Shown here: piece by piece, positions 7,854 to 62,584 of the stretch
Position numbering within the stretch: position 1 is the first letter of the stretch
Layout: every line of letters begins with the position of its first letter
Notes under the pieces: generated by a model
What the model was told of the DNA's origin: nothing
What the model saw: only the letters and a program-made list of their open reading frames with translations
The model's database searches: none
Source of the DNA: a phage
Reading direction: 5' to 3' (one strand)
Sequence record: PQ327946.1
Length of the DNA stretch: 64,000 nt
Translations under genes and position numbers: made by a program

Positions 7854-8780
7854 ATGTCAGGTTATAATGCACAAAACCCTAAAGAATTAAAGGACGTAAT
7901 ATTACGTCGTTTAGGCGCTCCTATTGTAAATGTTGAATTAACTACAGACCAAATTTATGATTGTATTTCACGAGCGTTAGAACTTTATGGCGAATACCAT
8001 TTTGACGGGTTGAATAAAGGTTTCCATGTATTTTTTGTTGATGACGAAGAAAAATACCGTCACGGCGTATTTGATATGCGCGGTTCTAACGTATTTGCTG
8101 TAACAAGAATTATAAGAACAAATGTTGGCTCTATTACTTCAATGGATGGTAATGCAACTTATCCATGGTTCACTGATTTCCTTTTAGGAATGGCAGGTGT
8201 TTCAGGTGGTATGGGTAGTAATTGTGGTAAATTCTACGGTCCGAACGCTTTTGGCGCTGACCTCGGGTATTATTCTCAATTAGTATCTTATATGGGTATG
8301 CTTCAAGATATGATTGCTCCTCTTCCAGATTTTTGGTTTAACTCTGCAAACGAGCAATTAAAAGTAATGGGTAACTTTAGACAGAAAGATGTCATTATCG
8401 TTGAATCGTATGTTCGCTCTTATATCGAGACCCATAAGATGGTAGGAAATACAGTAGGGTACGGACAGGTCGGTCCTCGTGATTCATGGTCTATTTCTGA
8501 ACGTTATGATAATCCAGACCATAATTTGGTCGGACGTCTAGTTGGTGAAGATCCTGCAACTAAACAAGGCGCATATAACAACCGCTGGGTTAAAGATTAT
8601 GCAACTGCATTAGCTAAAGAGCTTAACGGACAAATTCTTGCTAGACATCAAGGTATGATGTTACCTGGTGGCGTCACTGTTGATGGTGTTCGATTAATTG
8701 AAGAAGCTCGTTTAGAGAAAGAAGCTTTACGAGAAGAGTTATATTTACTGGACCCTCCTGCAGGTATTTTGGTAGGTTAA
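7854..8780 (+). CDS. 13: neck protein gp13
   Basis: 308 aa, T4 gp13 size and position. Confidence 0.9.
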
Positions 8781-8781
8781 T

Positions 8782-9417
8782 ATGGCAACATACTACAGAT
8801 TGTATATTACAACATTTGAAACATCCACCGGTATAAAGATTTATGGTGGTAAACACAAATCAGTTTACGAAGACCCTTCAAAAGACCCTTATACTGGGTC
8901 TGGCACCTTTATACGAAGGGCCAAAAGAAAATACGGTCCGTCTTGTATAAAAGAAATTATATGGTCTAAGCCATTTGAATCTAAAGCTCTAATGGATGAA
9001 GCTGAAGAGTTACTGGTAGATGAATTATCCATTTTAGAAAATTGCGCAAATCTTGTTAAAGGTGGTGCAGGCGGAAGGTCGTATATTAACCCAGAAGATA
9101 ATCCATCTATAGGACAAAAACGTTCAGCCCAATCTAAAAAGAAAATGTCTGACGCCGCAAAATCAAGAAAATGGACTGAAGAAGGGTTAAGAAAACGTAA
9201 AGAATCTACAGCAAGAATGTGGAAAGATTTCAAACATAGACATCCTGATTTTTCTGGTTCAAAAAATCCAGCAGCTCGAAAAGTTAGTGTAAATGGTAAA
9301 ATATTTAACACCTGCAAAGAATGTGGTGAAGAATTTAATATCACATCAAGCGCGGTTATAGGCCGATGCAAAAACAACAAACCTAAATGGGCAGGATGGA
9401 ATTATGTCGACGTATAA
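8782..9417 (+). CDS. seg-like GIY-YIG homing endonuclease (putative), inserted between genes 13 and 14
   Basis: N-terminal [21 protein letters not shown] (degenerate GIY-x10-YIG), shared D-x-Y-x-GSG...KYG motif with the two other seg-like ORFs in this window, basic K/R-rich C-terminal half; no counterpart at this position in T4. Confidence 0.6.
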
Positions 9418-19804: not shown

Positions 19805-21373
19805 ATGACTACTATCAAAACTAAAGCTCAGCTCGTAGACAAATGGAAAGAACTGCTGGAAGGTGAAGGCCTGCCGGAAATCGCTAATAGCAAGCAGGCT
19901 ATTATCGCTAAAATCTTCGAAAACCAGGAAAAAGATTTCGAAGTATCCCCTGAATATAAAGACGAGAAAATCGCTCAGGCATTTGGTTCTTTCTTGACCG
20001 AAGCTGAAATTGGTGGGGACCACGGTTATAATGCTCAGAACATCGCAGCAGGTCAAACCTCCGGTGCAGTAACCCAGATTGGGCCGGCAGTTATGGGTAT
20101 GGTTCGTCGTGCTATTCCTAATCTGATCGCTTTTGATATTTGTGGTGTTCAGCCTATGAACAGCCCTACCGGTCAGGTATTTGCTCTCCGTGCAGTATAT
20201 GGTAAAGACCCTATCGCTGCTGACGCTAAAGAAGCTTTCCATCCGATGTATGCTCCAGACGCGATGTTCTCTGGTCAGGGTGCTGCTAAGAAATTCCCAG
20301 CTCTGGCTGCTAGCACACAAACCGTTGTAGGTGATATCTATACTCACTTCTTCCAGGAAACTGGTACTGTGTATCTACAAGCTTCCGCTGTAGTAACAAT
20401 CGATGCTGGCGCTACCGATGCAGCTAAATTAGATGCTGAAATTAAGAAACAAATGGAAGCTGGTGTACTGGTAGAAATCGCTGAAGGTATGGCTACTTCT
20501 ATCGCTGAACTTCAGGAAGGTTTCAATGGTTCTACCGACAACCCGTGGAACGAAATGGGCTTCCGTATCGACAAACAAGTTATTGAAGCTAAATCTCGTC
20601 AGCTGAAAGCAGCTTACTCCATCGAATTGGCACAAGACCTCCGTGCAGTACACGGTATGGATGCTGATGCTGAACTGAGCGGTATTCTTGCTACTGAAAT
20701 TATGCTGGAAATCAACCGTGAAGTTGTTGACTGGATTAACTACTCCGCTCAGGTTGGTAAATCTGGTATGACTAATATCGTTGGTTCTAAAGCTGGTGTA
20801 TTTGACTTCCAGGACCCGATTGATATCCGTGGTGCTCGTTGGGCCGGTGAAAGCTTTAAAGCTCTGTTGTTCCAGATTGATAAAGAAGCAGTTGAAATTG
20901 CTCGTCAAACCGGTCGTGGTGAAGGTAACTTCATTATCGCTTCCCGTAACGTAGTTAACGTACTGGCTTCAGTTGATACTGGTATTTCTTACGCTGCACA
21001 GGGTCTGGCTTCTGGTTTTAATACCGACACTACTAAGTCTGTATTTGCCGGTGTACTTGGTGGTAAATACCGCGTATACATCGACCAGTATGCTAAACAG
21101 GATTACTTCACCGTTGGTTACAAAGGCGCTAACGAAATGGATGCAGGTATTTACTATGCTCCTTACGTTGCACTTACCCCACTGCGTGGTTCCGATCCTA
21201 AGAACTTCCAGCCGGTAATGGGCTTTAAAACTCGTTACGGTATCGGTGTTAACCCGTTTGCTGAAAGTTCCCTGCAGGCTCCAGGTGCTCGCATCCAGTC
21301 CGGTATGCCGTCTATCCTGAACAGCCTTGGTAAGAACGCTTACTTTAGACGCGTCTACGTTAAAGGAATTTAA
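19805..21373 (+). CDS. 23: major capsid protein gp23
   Basis: 522 aa; near-identical to T4 gp23 (…GLPEIANSKQAIIAKIFENQEKDF… to C-terminal NAYFRRVYVKGI). Confidence 0.98.
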   Translation: MTTIKTKAQLVDKWKELLEGEGLPEIANSKQAIIAKIFENQEKDFEVSPEYKDEKIAQAFGSFLTEAEIGGDHGYNAQNIAAGQTSGAVTQIGPAVMGMVRRAIPNLIAFDICGVQPMNSPTGQVFALRAVYGKDPIAADAKEAFHPMYAPDAMFSGQGAAKKFPALAASTQTVVGDIYTHFFQETGTVYLQASAVVTIDAGATDAAKLDAEIKKQMEAGVLVEIAEGMATSIAELQEGFNGSTDNPWNEMGFRIDKQVIEAKSRQLKAAYSIELAQDLRAVHGMDADAELSGILATEIMLEINREVVDWINYSAQVGKSGMTNIVGSKAGVFDFQDPIDIRGARWAGESFKALLFQIDKEAVEIARQTGRGEGNFIIASRNVVNVLASVDTGISYAAQGLASGFNTDTTKSVFAGVLGGKYRVYIDQYAKQDYFTVGYKGANEMDAGIYYAPYVALTPLRGSDPKNFQPVMGFKTRYGIGVNPFAESSLQAPGARIQSGMPSILNSLGKNAYFRRVYVKGI

Positions 21374-21402
21374 TGCTTTAACGTTAAAATACATAACCTT
21401 AT

Positions 21403-21430
21403 GGGAGACTCCGGTCTCCCATTCTTGTTT
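21403..21430. terminator. bidirectional terminator between gene 23 (+) and segD-like gene (-)
   Basis: GGGAGACTCCGGTCTCCC then ATTCTTGTTT. Confidence 0.65.
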
Positions 21431-22090
21431 CTATAGCTTAAAACAATCATCGCGTTCATTAATCCAATTTCTTATAGTTTTTGCGGATACGTTAAAGAAT
21501 TCGGCAGCGTAATCGTAGTGGTTAAATTCATGACCTTTAATAGAAATATCCACAAATACAAATTTCTTACCTTTATTAGAATTCTTTCTAATTTTTGCTT
21601 TATGCTCTTCTGATAGTTTTCTACCTTTAAGATGAGAATCTCTATTTTTATAAAACTTTTTATTTGATATAGATTTGTTTTCTCGATGTTCTTTAGATTC
21701 TTTAGAACCTAATTTCTTTTTAGATATTTTGGCCCGAACTTCTTCAGTCATACCAGCTTTTGTCTTTTCGGATAACATCTCACGATACCCAGGTTCCTGT
21801 AAAGCTACTATAACAGGATTACCCTTGCCGCCTAAGGCGGCATTATAAGTATCTGTTCTCATGACAAAAGCCTCGTCAACTAGTTCGGCTTCCTTAGCAT
21901 ACATCTCTTCAGATGTTTCGAAATTGAAAAGGATTTCCTTTTTAAAATTCTCTAAGCCGTATTTCTTTATGGATTTTACTATGTTAACCCCGGAACCCAT
22001 ATAAGAATCGTTAACATCTGTAGTGGCATGGGCTCCAATATAAATCTTGTTATTAATGAGATTGGTTATTTTGTAAATTAAATAATTCAT
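21431..22090 (-). CDS. segD: seg-like GIY-YIG homing endonuclease (segD position)
   Basis: N-terminal YLIYKITNLINNKIYIGAH (GIY...YIG) plus DSYMGSG...KKYG motif; sits between genes 23 and 24 on the opposite strand, as T4 segD. Confidence 0.8.
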   Translation of the reverse strand: MNYLIYKITNLINNKIYIGAHATTDVNDSYMGSGVNIVKSIKKYGLENFKKEILFNFETSEEMYAKEAELVDEAFVMRTDTYNAALGGKGNPVIVALQEPGYREMLSEKTKAGMTEEVRAKISKKKLGSKESKEHRENKSISNKKFYKNRDSHLKGRKLSEEHKAKIRKNSNKGKKFVFVDISIKGHEFNHYDYAAEFFNVSAKTIRNWINERDDCFKL

Positions 22091-22093
22091 AAT

Positions 22094-22360
22094 TTACGCT
22101 GCTTTGACACGACGGTTGATGATATCACGGAAGTCAATACGATTTTCTTGGATTTTCAGCCAGTTACCAGATTTGTCTTTGGTATGGGTAGAATATTCAC
22201 CGTTCCACCAGAAGTCGGTTTCATAAGCCAAGGCTTCGTATTTCTTAACCAATGCATTAACTGCATTACCGTTAGGATTGGTACCAAATTTTTCTACCAG
22301 AGCTTTGATGTCTTTGTCAAGGTTAGAAAGTGTGGTACGGATAAAGTTTAATTTGTTCAT
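22094..22360 (-). CDS. hypothetical protein (88 aa) upstream of segD-like gene
   Basis: Start moved to MNKLNF... (ATG 22358-22360) preceded by GAGGAG; the track's first 5 codons are the conserved early-leader ATGAGGAG. Confidence 0.55.
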   Translation of the reverse strand: MNKLNFIRTTLSNLDKDIKALVEKFGTNPNGNAVNALVKKYEALAYETDFWWNGEYSTHTKDKSGNWLKIQENRIDFRDIINRRVKAA

Positions 22361-22389
22361 TTTTAATCTCCTCATGTTTTGATAGGTCT

Positions 22390-22419
22390 ATAGTAACACA
22401 ACGCTTTTTGTGTGTAAAC
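22390..22419 (-). promoter_or_regulatory. early (sigma70-type) promoter for the 88-aa ORF and segD-like gene
   Basis: Minus strand GTTTACA-N17-TACTAT, then leader ...CAAAACATGAGGAG. Confidence 0.6.
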
Positions 22420-22425
22420 CACTTT

Positions 22426-22433
22426 TATAAATA
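22426..22433 (+). promoter_or_regulatory. late promoter (TATAAATA) for gene 24
   Basis: TATAAATA 31 nt upstream of gene 24 ATG. Confidence 0.7.
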
Positions 22434-22463
22434 AAATTATATTCTCAATAAGGAAAAAATGCA

Positions 22464-23747
22464 ATGAGTAAAATCCAAAAATTATTGCGTGAATCTACAA
22501 CGTCTATTAGCAACTCAATTGGTCGCCCAAATCTCGTTGCTTTGACTCGCGCTACGACTAAACTAATATATTCTGACATTGTAGCAACACAAAGAACTAA
22601 TCAACCTGTTGCTGCTTTTTATGGTATCAAATATCTTAACCCGGATAACGAATTCACATTTAAAACTGGTGCTACTTATGCTGGCGAAGTTGGATATGTA
22701 GACCGAGAAAAAATTACTGAGCTCACAGAAGAATCAAAAGTCACACTAAATAAAGGCGATTTTTTCAAATATAATAATATCGTCTATAAAGTGTTAGAAG
22801 ATACACCATTTGCAGATATTCAAGAAAGTGATCTAGAATTAGCTCTTCAGATTGCGGTCGTTCATTTAAAGGTACGGTTATTTTCAGATGCAGCGGTAAC
22901 AAGCAAATTTGAAAGCTCTGATAGCGAAATTTCTGATGCAAGATTCCAGATTAATAAATGGCAAACTTCGGTCAAATCTCGTAAACTTAAAACTGGACTC
23001 ACGGTTGAATTAGCGCAAGATTTGGAAGCGAATGGATTTGATGCCCCTAACTTCTTAGAAGATTTGCTTGCTACTGAAATGGCTGATGAAATTAATAAAG
23101 ATATTCTTCAGTCTTTAATTACTGTATCGAAACGTTATAAAGTTACTGGAATTACTGACACCGGATTTATTGACTTGAGCTATGCATCCGCTCCAGAAGC
23201 AGGTCGTTCATTATATCGAATGGTGTGTGAAATGGTATCACACATTCAAAAAGAGACAACTTATACTGCAACGTTTTGTGTAGCCTCAGCTCGTGCAGCT
23301 GCTATTCTTGCTGCTTCCGGTTGGTTGAAACATAAGCCAGAAGATGACAAGTATCTTTCACAAAATGCTTATGGATTCTTGGCAAATGGATTACCTCTTT
23401 ACTGCGATACCAACAGCCCGTTAGATTATGTTATTGTGGGTGTTGTAGAAAATATCGGTGAAAAAGAAATTGTAGGGTCCGTCTTTTATGCTCCATACAC
23501 TGAAGGAGTAGATTTAGATGACCCGGAACATGTTGGTGCATTTAAAGTTGTAGTTGATCCAGAAAGCTTGCAACCGTCTATCGGATTATTGGTTAGATAT
23601 GCTTTATCAGCAAATCCTTACACAGTAGCAAAAGATGAAAAAGAAGCGAGAATAATTGATGGCGGGGACATGGATAAAATGGCAGGACGTTCAGACTTGT
23701 CTGTTTTACTCGGTGTTAAATTGCCTAAAATTATCATTGATGAATAA
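22464..23747 (+). CDS. 24: capsid vertex protein gp24
   Basis: 427 aa, gp23 paralogue; T4 gp24 size and position; TATAAATA upstream. Confidence 0.93.
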   Translation: MSKIQKLLRESTTSISNSIGRPNLVALTRATTKLIYSDIVATQRTNQPVAAFYGIKYLNPDNEFTFKTGATYAGEVGYVDREKITELTEESKVTLNKGDFFKYNNIVYKVLEDTPFADIQESDLELALQIAVVHLKVRLFSDAAVTSKFESSDSEISDARFQINKWQTSVKSRKLKTGLTVELAQDLEANGFDAPNFLEDLLATEMADEINKDILQSLITVSKRYKVTGITDTGFIDLSYASAPEAGRSLYRMVCEMVSHIQKETTYTATFCVASARAAAILAASGWLKHKPEDDKYLSQNAYGFLANGLPLYCDTNSPLDYVIVGVVENIGEKEIVGSVFYAPYTEGVDLDDPEHVGAFKVVVDPESLQPSIGLLVRYALSANPYTVAKDEKEARIIDGGDMDKMAGRSDLSVLLGVKLPKIIIDE

Positions 23748-23776
23748 AAAAAAAGGGACCTTACGGTCCCTTTTTT
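23746..23776. terminator. bidirectional intrinsic terminator between gene 24 (+) and rnlB (-)
   Basis: A9-GGGACCTTACGGTCCC-T6: hairpin with A-run and T-run on either side. Confidence 0.8.
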
Positions 23777-25156: not shown

Positions 25157-25347
25157 TTCTTCACCTTTCTGTTAATCAAACGTTTACGGTATACAACTTT
25201 TTCTTTTGCTTTAAACTTTGACCGAGCTGTCTCGGCTTTAGTCCATAATAATCCAACTTCTTTAGGTTGTAAACCGATTTTTTGAGCAATTTCTACGAAT
25301 GAAAATCCCGCCTCATGTAATGTATAAACTTCAACTTCAGCTCTCAT
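25153..25347 (-). CDS. 24.3: hypothetical small basic protein, possible HTH (T4 24.3 position)
   Basis: 64 aa; AGFSFVEIAQKIG resembles a helix-turn-helix; synteny. Confidence 0.55.
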   Translation of the reverse strand: MRAEVEVYTLHEAGFSFVEIAQKIGLQPKEVGLLWTKAETARSKFKAKEKVVYRKRLINRKVKK

Positions 25348-37736: not shown

Positions 37737-37766
37737 ATAGTATCACACATTCATGTGTTTGTAAAC
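37737..37766 (-). promoter_or_regulatory. early promoter for the alt.-1-like ORF
   Basis: Minus strand GTTTACAAACACATGAATGTGTGATACTAT, then leader CATCAACAACATGAGGAAAACGTT-ATG. Confidence 0.6.
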
Positions 37767-48636: not shown

Positions 48637-48666
48637 ATAGTATCACAACTCCACCATGTTGTAAAC
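48637..48666 (-). promoter_or_regulatory. early promoter (GTTTACA-N17-TACTAT)
   Basis: Minus strand GTTTACAACATGGTGGAGTTGTGATACTAT, then leader CCAACAAATGAGGAAATAGAA-ATG. Confidence 0.6.
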
Positions 48667-49176: not shown

Positions 49177-49357
49177 TTAACCATTCAATTGCCTGGTCGA
49201 CGTTATCAAATATACTGCCGTCCAACCATTCTTCATGTTCATAGTCCAGCACATCAATACCGAACCGTCCATTTACTAAAGGCCATACGCAGAAGAAAAA
49301 GCATTTACGTTTTTCAATTTCTTCGATTGTACGAAAAATCTTTTCGATATTATTCAT
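49157..49357 (-). CDS. hypothetical protein (66 aa)
   Basis: ORF in cd-pseT interval, overlapping neighbours by a few codons. Confidence 0.45.
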   Translation of the reverse strand: MNNIEKIFRTIEEIEKRKCFFFCVWPLVNGRFGIDVLDYEHEEWLDGSIFDNVDQAIEWLNENYVR

Positions 49358-50072
49358 AGGTTTTCCATTTGCGGCCTAATTGCCAATCAGGATGGCTCAA
49401 TCTAGGGTCGTTTTCATCTGTTGTAGAAGATTTCTTACCTGAAATATGGATAAGCCATTTTCTGGATTTAGCTGCTTTAGAATAGTTTTCTTTTGCCTTA
49501 TCTGAACGAATCTTACCTTTATTCGCTTCGGATATTTTATTACCCCATTCTATAATAGCTTCTTCGCTCATAAAATCTTTTACATTTTTACCGTACATAG
49601 GATTATTTTCGCCTTCAAATGAATTACCATTTTTAAGACGACTTTCTTTAGATTTAATCCCATGCCCTGGTAATTTCTTGCCTTTAATCCATGGCACGGC
49701 ACCGTTTTTATATCTCTGTTTTTGTGTTTCTGAAATTTTTAATGAAGTTTCAGGGCTGGAATTAACATTAATACGGTTTTCATTGATATAATCCCAGCCT
49801 CCTTCTCCACCAGGTTTCAAATTATAATTAGTATCCAATTTTATAAATTCTTTAGTTACTAATTCGGCTTCTAAATCATATGCTTCTTGTTTAGTTTCAA
49901 ATATTTTTATGATTTCTTTATTAAAAGAATCTTTACCATATTTTGATTCGGCATTTTTAAAAGCTGTACCAGAACCTAAATAAGAATCATTTTCTTTTAA
50001 GGTCTTATGAACCCCTATATAAATTTTGTTGTTAACCAAACATGTGGTTTTATACACAGTGTACTTTTCCAT
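49350..50072 (-). CDS. seg-like GIY-YIG homing endonuclease
   Basis: Start moved to ATG (MEKYTVYKTTCLVNNKIYIGVHKT); GIY-YIG module plus DSYLGSG...KYG motif; TATAAATA late promoter 20 nt upstream; no seg gene at this position in T4. Confidence 0.75.
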   Translation of the reverse strand: MEKYTVYKTTCLVNNKIYIGVHKTLKENDSYLGSGTAFKNAESKYGKDSFNKEIIKIFETKQEAYDLEAELVTKEFIKLDTNYNLKPGGEGGWDYINENRINVNSSPETSLKISETQKQRYKNGAVPWIKGKKLPGHGIKSKESRLKNGNSFEGENNPMYGKNVKDFMSEEAIIEWGNKISEANKGKIRSDKAKENYSKAAKSRKWLIHISGKKSSTTDENDPRLSHPDWQLGRKWKTYE

Positions 50073-50091
50073 TAGAATCACCTCTATAGAT

Positions 50092-50099
50092 ATTTATAC
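50092..50099 (-). promoter_or_regulatory. late promoter (TATAAATA on minus strand) for seg-like endonuclease
   Basis: Minus strand reads GTATAAATATCTATAGAGGTGATTCTA-ATG. Confidence 0.6.
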
Positions 50100-51534: not shown

Positions 51535-51564
51535 ATTATACTCTGCTCCTGAGAGTTTGTAAAC
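51535..51564 (-). promoter_or_regulatory. early promoter (GTTTACA-N17-TATAAT)
   Basis: Minus strand GTTTACAAACTCTCAGGAGCAGAGTATAAT; -10 flanked by inverted repeat AGGAGCA/TGCTCCT. Confidence 0.6.
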
Positions 51565-52940: not shown

Positions 52941-52970
52941 ATAGTAACACCTTCCTTGGTGTTTGTAAAC
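52941..52970 (-). promoter_or_regulatory. early promoter for alc
   Basis: Minus strand GTTTACAAACACCAAGGAAGGTGTTACTAT, then leader TATCAACAACACGAGGAGAAAATT-ATG. Confidence 0.6.
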
Positions 52971-54122: not shown

Positions 54123-54152
54123 AATTGTACCACAATCCTTGTGGCATGTAAA
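54123..54152 (-). promoter_or_regulatory. early promoter for rnlA
   Basis: Minus strand GTTTACATGCCACAAGGATTGTGGTACAAT, then SD GAGGA and ATG. Confidence 0.55.
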
Positions 54153-54563
54153 CTACTTTTTCTTATGTTGGATATTCCAAGGCGGGTTGAACTTTTTGAT
54201 AAAAAGCGGTTCTTCAAGGTCCATTGTTGCGATGGTCATTGAACCAAGTTCGTTGGTGACTGAAAGGTCAAAACATTGGCGGGCCCAGAATTCAACCTTT
54301 TTGCCTTGCATTAAGGCATCCAAAATCATAAGTGATTTTCTTGAATCTGAAGTCTGGTCTTTTCGATTTATGGCTGTTCGATAATAGTTAATGCGTTTCT
54401 TTAAATTCTTGGTTTTACCAATATACACAAGTTCGTCATCTATAGCAATAGCGTATATGACATTTTTCTTATTAGGGACATCAACTGTTTTAATTGTTGC
54501 ATCTTCTAATAGCTCCAATTCTGTATATTTAATAAAGGAATATTCGGCGGCAATATCTTTCAT
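54153..54563 (-). CDS. denA: endonuclease II (GIY-YIG family)
   Basis: 136 aa; VIYAIAIDDELVYIGKTKNLKKRINYY; matches T4 DenA. Confidence 0.93.
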   Translation of the reverse strand: MKDIAAEYSFIKYTELELLEDATIKTVDVPNKKNVIYAIAIDDELVYIGKTKNLKKRINYYRTAINRKDQTSDSRKSLMILDALMQGKKVEFWARQCFDLSVTNELGSMTIATMDLEEPLFIKKFNPPWNIQHKKK

Positions 54564-62526: not shown

Positions 62527-62555
62527 TTTGATTTCCTCATGTTGTTGATAAGTCT

Positions 62556-62584
62556 ATAGTATCATGTTTAAAGGAAAAGTAAAC
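62556..62584 (-). promoter_or_regulatory. early promoter (GTTTAC-N17-TACTAT) for the 130-aa ORF
   Basis: Minus strand GTTTACTTTTCCTTTAAACATGATACTAT, then leader TATCAACAACATGAGGAAATCAAA-ATG. Confidence 0.6.

Follow-up and report, generated by a model that had tools for sequence, protein, structure and literature searches.

A segD-type homing endonuclease gene behind a resident early gene between phage capsid genes 23 and 24

The 64,000-nucleotide (nt) stretch of DNA from a T4-like phage in record PQ327946.1, referred to here as the window, carries two minus-strand genes between the late, plus-strand capsid genes 23 and 24. One of them, segD (21431..22090), encodes a free-standing GIY-YIG homing endonuclease of 219 amino acids, and the other, ORF88 (22094..22360, with its ATG at 22360), is a small early gene for a protein of 88 amino acids. 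The most probable account is that segD is an insert behind a resident ORF88 unit, that it borrows the early promoter and the ribosomes of this unit, and that it spreads by homing together with its flanks. An earlier, sequence-only reading of the window had listed a segD-like open reading frame (ORF), an 88-amino-acid ORF, an early and a late promoter, and a hairpin, and all of these lie where it placed them.

The extent of the insert is evident from alleles that lack segD. The DNA absent from SQ17 and MX01 spans 21436..22093 (minus strand) and consists of the segD ORF and a 3-nt spacer; the segD stop codon and 2 nt of its last codon belong to the shared flank, outside the insert. The window and SQ17, with flanks that are 99% identical, are collinear up to 21435 and again from 22113, with a clean 658-nt insert. 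Between the insert and the second point of collinearity lies a recoded ORF88 3' end (22094..22112, minus strand), in which 9 of 19 nt differ from the segD-less allele and the terminal RRVKIA* becomes RRVKAA*; over the remaining ORF88, the window and SQ17 show about three differences. IME08 has the same recoded end as the window, and UP19 and 04086 have other variants. The arrangement of TAA, 3 nt, and the segD ATG is found in all four segD-bearing alleles examined, and the last few ORF88 codons vary among them. These junctions were taken from direct sequence comparison, as a three-way MAFFT alignment misplaced the large gap. Because tblastn covered residues 1-72, a replaced ORF88 C-terminus was considered for the segD-less alleles and rejected: identity runs to residue 82, and the last six codons are recoded. 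On this comparison, segD is inserted between the ORF88 stop codon and the terminator hairpin of gene 23.

The presence or absence of segD is polymorphic at this fixed site between conserved genes, and four architectures can be distinguished. ORF88 is followed by segD in the window, IME08, UP19, and 04086 (38 records covering at least 80% of 21300-22500), and it stands alone in SQ17, MX01, VR7, and JS09. The ORF88 type occurs in 120 phage records in all, about 82 of them without segD. T4 has segD alone (53 records), and neither gene is present in G8 and most Tequatrovirus phages, which have a 56-nt spacer (most of the 656 records matching the T4 query). In Mosigvirus, Dhakavirus, and Gaprivervirus, ORF88 occupies the space between genes 23 and 24. 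At the same site in the four segD-less phages named above, it is accompanied by its promoter and leader; the JS09 allele is diverged (31% identity), with the same back-to-back promoters. In an Acinetobacter phage, a remote homologue stands without any neighbouring seg gene. Since ORF88, promoter, and leader are found without segD in relatives, and the Acinetobacter homologue is likewise seg-free, ORF88 is a resident early gene and no seg-partner gene, and segD alone is the insert. Base composition differs along the locus, with a G+C content of 32.4% in segD, 39% in ORF88, and 46% in gene 23. Low G+C content is usual in inserted endonuclease genes.

In SegD, residues 1-90 form the catalytic domain, which a NUMOD3-like linker joins to a C-terminal helix-turn-helix (HTH); the Pfam matches to NUMOD3 and HTH models are weak. 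It matches PHROG 314 ("homing endonuclease") at E 5.4e-54, and its closest T4 paralogue is SegD, with 58.8% identity over 100% of its length. It is also annotated as SegD in F2, PNJ-9, and IME08 in GenBank. The assignment to the segD type made from sequence alone is therefore borne out, by T4 homology as well as by the shared locus and orientation. An alignment of 38 diverse family members has 18 invariant columns, and SegD keeps all 18, including the GIY/YIG motif residues (IY6, Y17-I-G19), E67, and N83; its conserved residues are intact, a point that the earlier reading had proposed to check against T4 segD. In the AlphaFold2 (AF2) model, which has a predicted local distance difference test score (pLDDT) of 84.8, the best Foldseek matches in the PDB are the I-TevI catalytic domain (1mk0/1ln0) and the I-TevI DNA-binding domain (1i3j), each with a probability of 1.00. 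A phmmer search against PDB sequences returned a chance match only, with no direct sequence match to PDB chains. Across five alleles, the ratio of nonsynonymous to synonymous substitution rates (dN/dS) ranges from 0.12 to 0.24 for the whole gene and from 0.03 to 0.10 for the catalytic domain. By residues, model, and substitution rates, SegD looks intact.

Two side observations concern other segD alleles. The allele of phage 04086 is unannotated and was considered as a pseudogene, which was rejected: the gene is intact and encodes 223 amino acids (433-1104 of the stretch compared). segD is also mosaic. Relative to UP19, the N-terminal part has a dS of 0.26 and the remainder one of 0.04; relative to IME08, the values are 0.13 and 0.72, respectively. 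This pattern points to recombination inside segD, between the catalytic and DNA-binding parts.

The resident unit has a T4-type early (sigma-70-like) promoter, GTTTACA-N17-TACTAT, at 22390..22419 (minus strand). It shows the GTTTAC -35, the 17-18-nt spacer, the TAnnAT -10, the A/T-rich upstream zone, and the early-gene strand that characterize T4 early promoters; a TG precedes the -10, and a generic scan gives 9 of 12 matches. Ten sites in the window fit the pattern GTTTAC-N16-19-TANNAT, none of them on the plus strand, and 1.06 matches are expected by chance, which argues that the pattern is not fortuitous. Downstream lies a short 5' leader (22361..22389, minus strand) with the Shine-Dalgarno (SD) sequence GAGGAG at 22368-22373, 7 nt upstream of the ORF88 ATG. 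This leader is nearly identical to the one at 62533-62555, downstream of the early promoter at 62556-62584. Close variants are found at four other early promoters in all, and at several sites an SD and an ATG follow, in agreement with the conserved leader that had been noticed from sequence alone.

On the opposite strand, the late promoter of gene 24, TATAAATA, occupies 22426..22433 (plus strand), 30 nt upstream of the gene 24 ATG. The late promoter is separated by 6 nt from the -35 hexamer of its early counterpart, in whose A/T-rich upstream zone it sits, so the two do abut, as had been claimed. TATAAATA is kept upstream of gene 24 in all relatives aligned. The early promoter, the leader, and the abutting late promoter are kept in all ORF88-bearing genomes of the alignment, with or without segD. 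The description of this transcription as convergent holds in part: gene 23 and the minus-strand unit converge at the hairpin, but the early and late promoters stand back to back and are divergent. From promoter type, transcription from the two would be separated in time, early and late.

These features suggest how segD would be expressed. The resident minus-strand unit, consisting of the early promoter, a 22-nt leader with a strong SD, and ORF88, reads against the capsid genes, and host RNA polymerase would start at its promoter soon after infection. Ribosomes would translate ORF88 and stop at its UAA, and a fraction would reinitiate 3 nt further on at the segD AUG, giving a low dose of SegD early in infection. 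No SD-like motif is present in the 35 nt upstream of the segD ATG, no MotA-type middle promoter was found for segD, and a minus-strand TATAAATA, even with one mismatch allowed, is absent upstream of segD. A terminator scan finds none between the early promoter and segD, and the ORF88/segD junction shows no notable RNA structure. The segD transcript would run to the hairpin, which would be a weaker terminator on the minus strand than in the direction of gene 23. Late in infection, TATAAATA would drive gene 24, and gene 23 transcripts would end at the hairpin. SegD would cut the segD-less allele of a co-infecting relative, and repair would copy segD with flanking DNA.

The insert lies in a larger patch of foreign origin. 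With segD removed, the intergenic module at 21340..22440 (both strands; delimited from identity in 40-nt bins and mismatch histograms) shows 95-100% identity with Dhakavirus MX01 and 35-58% with Mosigvirus JS09. In the flanks, formed by gene 23 as far as about 21320 and by gene 24 beyond about 22450, identity is 98-100% with JS09 and 50-90% with MX01. By this profile, the whole module of terminator, ORF88, and both promoters is a Dhakavirus-type patch of about 1.1 kb in a Mosigvirus backbone. The last 15 or so codons of gene 23 fall within it. The patch ends near 21320-21360 and 22440-22465 and therefore takes in both promoters. Among T4 Seg enzymes, intronless homing accompanied by co-conversion is an established process (Edgell et al., PMC2988022), and the patch is of the kind expected from co-conversion in endonuclease-driven repair.

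Several points weigh against the account of a borrowed promoter and spread by homing. The Pfam GIY-YIG models score SegD under their gathering cut-offs (PF19835, 23.1 against 25; PF01541, 15.9 against 22.6); many close homologues carry PF19835 or PF01541. The proposed reinitiation at the segD AUG would have to proceed without an SD. The variable ORF88 C-terminus could reflect relaxed constraint instead of target-site recoding. Judging by its title, a 2018 paper by Sokolov et al. reportedly finds no self-homing for T4 SegD, and the orthologue described here may also be a poor homer. Finally, SQ17 has the same Dhakavirus-type module in a Mosigvirus backbone with no segD and an unrecoded ORF88 end, and thus the module can move, or has moved, without segD.

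That title and the imported, segD-less module of SQ17 would also fit a second explanation, in which segD is intact but effectively a non-homing passenger, and the module is exchanged by homologous recombination at the ends of genes 23 and 24 or at PeSL-like cassettes, not through breaks made by SegD. A PeSL cassette combines an early promoter with a stem-loop in or beside the -35/-10 spacer and has been linked to modular shuffling (Arbiol et al., 2010); the PeSL-like layout of the promoter here may help such exchange. At least four module types are exchanged as complete intergenic units, and the breakpoints fall in the ends of the genes. T4 and G8 differ across the whole intergenic module, and together with the SQ17 patch this shows that the 23/24 locus acts as a unit that can be swapped, its breakpoints lying in the conserved capsid-gene ends. 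However, the passenger explanation is unlikely. The strong purifying selection on SegD, above all on its catalytic domain, argues for an activity that matters. The presence and absence of segD in near-isogenic backbones, such as those of the window and SQ17, is the usual signature of a mobile endonuclease, and homing is established for other Seg enzymes.

T4 offers the closest comparison for how segD is expressed. As in the window, T4 segD lies between genes 23 and 24 in opposite orientation to both, its stop codon directly adjoins the T-tract that belongs to the terminator of gene 23, and its product has the same three-part architecture. T4 differs in that ORF88 is missing and segD follows directly behind the leader, and its promoter reads ATTTACA in place of GTTTACA. 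In the alignment, ATTTACA-N17-TATTAT stands exactly at the position of the early promoter, adjoining the late promoter of gene 24 and preceding segD by 21-30 nt. In T4 strain 147 (1943-1971 of the stretch compared), a generic scan scores this site at 10 of 12 matches, with the -10 preceded by a TG, and ranks it first among the promoter-like sites of the region. The T4 arrangement would thus be the same unit minus ORF88. The DNA-binding part of T4 SegD is far more diverged from SegD of the window than the catalytic part (dN 0.55 and 0.17, respectively), so the target site may differ. As a separate observation, the family alignment suggests that the true start of T4 SegD is the second ATG (MKYLIY...).

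According to the review by Edgell et al., segD alone among the T4 endonuclease genes runs counter to its neighbours, a promoter specific to it could not be found in T4, and the remaining free-standing endonuclease genes rely on middle or late promoters and never on early ones (PMC2988022). A literature search found no T4 RNA-seq papers mentioning segD. The same review suggests vanishingly low segD transcript levels in T4, and the missing SD would agree with a gene that is silent or reached by rare read-through of distant middle or late minus-strand transcripts, a proposal already made for T4 segD, and not expressed from the early promoter. This is very unlikely for several reasons. A consensus early promoter lies 300 nt upstream of segD on the same strand with no terminator between, the upstream minus-strand unit (rnlB) ends in a strong terminator, and T4 itself keeps TTTACA-N17-TATTAT, the best promoter-like site of its region. 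In addition, a dN/dS well below 1 indicates that SegD protein is made and selected.

The sequence-only reading had proposed that segD and ORF88 form one two-gene mobile cassette with its own early promoter and that the promoter junction is the element boundary. The two genes are indeed adjacent, co-oriented, and 3 nt apart, the entire intergenic module with its promoter is foreign in this backbone, and the T4 module has segD and a promoter-like sequence that segD-less Tequatroviruses such as G8 lack, yet this proposal is highly improbable and already largely refuted by the segD-less alleles: three genera and about two thirds of the records have ORF88, promoter, and leader but no segD, JS09 among them with its diverged ORF88 allele and the same back-to-back promoters, and the clean presence/absence boundary encloses segD only, its limit being the ORF88 stop codon and not the junction of the promoters. 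Nor does the 88-amino-acid ORF travel with seg genes elsewhere, a check that the earlier reading had suggested, as most ORF88 genes have no adjacent segD, T4 segD has no ORF88, and ORF88 homologues elsewhere have no seg neighbour.

The favoured account, segD as an insert borrowing the expression signals of ORF88, concerns an orthologue of segD whose 23/24 site was known and which GenBank already annotates as such, and its regulatory setting is modestly new. In other respects, it is a routine case of a selfish endonuclease gene using the expression signals of a host gene. The locus in the window, with early promoter, resident gene, and segD, is an architecture from which the T4 arrangement could derive, and with the promoter-like site conserved in T4, when and how segD is expressed can be tested directly. 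The short stretch that separates the two main capsid genes also appears as a recombination hotspot, with at least four alternative module types and whole modules that cross genus boundaries. A more far-reaching proposal is conceivable but somewhat doubtful. A strong early promoter, with termination-reinitiation downstream of the small resident gene, may drive expression of the segD lineage within the first minutes after infection, unlike in the characterised T4 homing endonuclease genes, which all use middle or late promoters; the same promoter in T4 would explain T4 segD expression, and early SegD would act as an exclusion weapon at the capsid-gene locus against co-infecting relatives.

Other known systems share parts of this arrangement. 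I-TevI, the group I intron GIY-YIG homing endonuclease of T4 td, has the same modular build of catalytic domain, linker, and HTH. The SegD model matches its catalytic domain with a template modelling (TM) score of 0.66 on the target (1mk0/1ln0) and also matches its DNA-binding domain (1i3j). In contrast, SegD is free-standing and not intron-encoded, and the two are about 22% identical. I-TevI is expressed from a late promoter, under the control of RNA structure and of autorepression (PMC2988022). T4 segA, segB, segE, segF, segG, and mobE resemble segD in lying between conserved genes, in their presence or absence among relatives, and in their co-conversion-like flanking patches. The T4 free-standing seg and mob genes lie tight to or overlap the upstream ORF, often without a ribosome-binding site (PMC2988022). 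They differ in using middle or late promoters, whereas the only promoter upstream of segD here is early.

Two more GIY-YIG seg-like genes lie in the window. The one at 49350-50081 (minus strand) follows a pseT-like gene and, unlike segD, has TATAAATA just upstream, at 50091-50098 (minus strand). The other, at 8782-9417 (plus strand), begins 2 nt past the stop of the preceding late gene (8780/8782) and is tightly packed behind its host gene.

By layout only, the promoter at 22390-22419 appears PeSL-like. Its spacer holds a 6-bp inverted repeat, ACACAA/TTGTGT, with a folding energy of -4.5 kcal/mol that is equalled by 3% of shuffles. At seven of the 10 early promoters in the window, the spacer folds better than at least 92% of shuffles of the same spacer. 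Spacer inverted repeats are found at 22390-22419, 25245-25274, 37737-37766, 48637-48666, 51535-51564, 52941-52970, and 54124-54153, and at two further early promoters (44643 and 45086), the repeat spans the -10 and the leader instead of the spacer. These repeats match the layout described for the PeSL cassettes of RB49 and phi1. Like those cassettes, the promoter at 22390-22419 combines an A/T-rich upstream zone, a sigma-70-like -35/-10, and a spacer inverted repeat, followed by an SD and a start codon, and it is tied to an exchangeable small early ORF. It differs in lying within a late structural block and not in a hyperplastic region, and its spacer stem is short (6 bp).

The ORF88 product belongs to the RB69ORF188c family and to PHROG 6003, which is labelled "unknown function". 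A mechanical reading of the ORF gives 93 amino acids and begins at an ATG inside the SD; some GenBank records annotate this longer form. ORF88 has no match in Pfam, and profile searches return a handful of small phage proteins only. An exhaustive profile search also returned P0129 and P0132, which are large and repetitive, and P0130, a 160-amino-acid chimera; on reading their sequences, these were rejected as compositional or assembly artefacts. The AF2 model shows an alpha-alpha-beta-beta-alpha arrangement with moderate confidence (pLDDT 75), and its comparison with the PDB and BFVD gave no credible fold match outside its own family. In the RB69 record (8292-8532 of the stretch compared), the gene of this family is split by two frameshifts into ORF188c and ORF189c. 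This is either a pseudogene, in which case the gene looks dispensable, or an old sequencing error, in which case it is mis-annotated there.

Gene 23 (major capsid protein, late, 19805..21373, plus strand) and gene 24 (capsid vertex protein, late, 22464..23747, plus strand, ATG at 22464) are taken from the ORF list and from the annotation of F2, in which gene 23 is annotated at 99.7% identity. The region 21300-22500 is 99.7% identical to Escherichia phages F2, PNJ-9, and JQD51, in which the minus-strand pair is annotated as "SegD / homing endonuclease" and "hypothetical protein". F2 (MN864145) is labelled Tequatrovirus. Its backbone here is 98-100% identical to Mosigvirus JS09 and 99% identical to SQ17, which is labelled Mosigvirus, and the taxonomy line of F2 looks inconsistent.

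The hairpin after gene 23, ATGGGAGAC-TCCG-GTCTCCCAT, has a 9-bp stem at 21401..21422 and would be the intrinsic terminator of gene 23 on the plus strand. It had been described as bidirectional, and the stem does fold on both strands: in a 70-nt context, the energies are -18.8 kcal/mol on the plus strand (z -5.0) and -19.7 kcal/mol on the minus strand (z -3.9). However, a U-tract directly 3' of the stem is present on the plus strand only, and the terminator scan calls the hairpin on that strand only. In minus-strand RNA, the stem begins 8 nt past the segD stop, with no directly adjoining U-tract. The hairpin is kept in alleles with and without segD. Its loop (21410-21413) is TCCG in the window and UP19 and TTCG in SQ17, MX01, JS09, IME08, and 04086, and this variant could not be tied to segD presence. 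No Rfam families were found in 21000-22800. A second, strong terminator in the block, at 23749-23776, is common to converging genes: this 12-bp hairpin with T-runs lies between the ends of gene 24 (plus strand) and rnlB (minus strand) and would block minus-strand read-through from rnlB.

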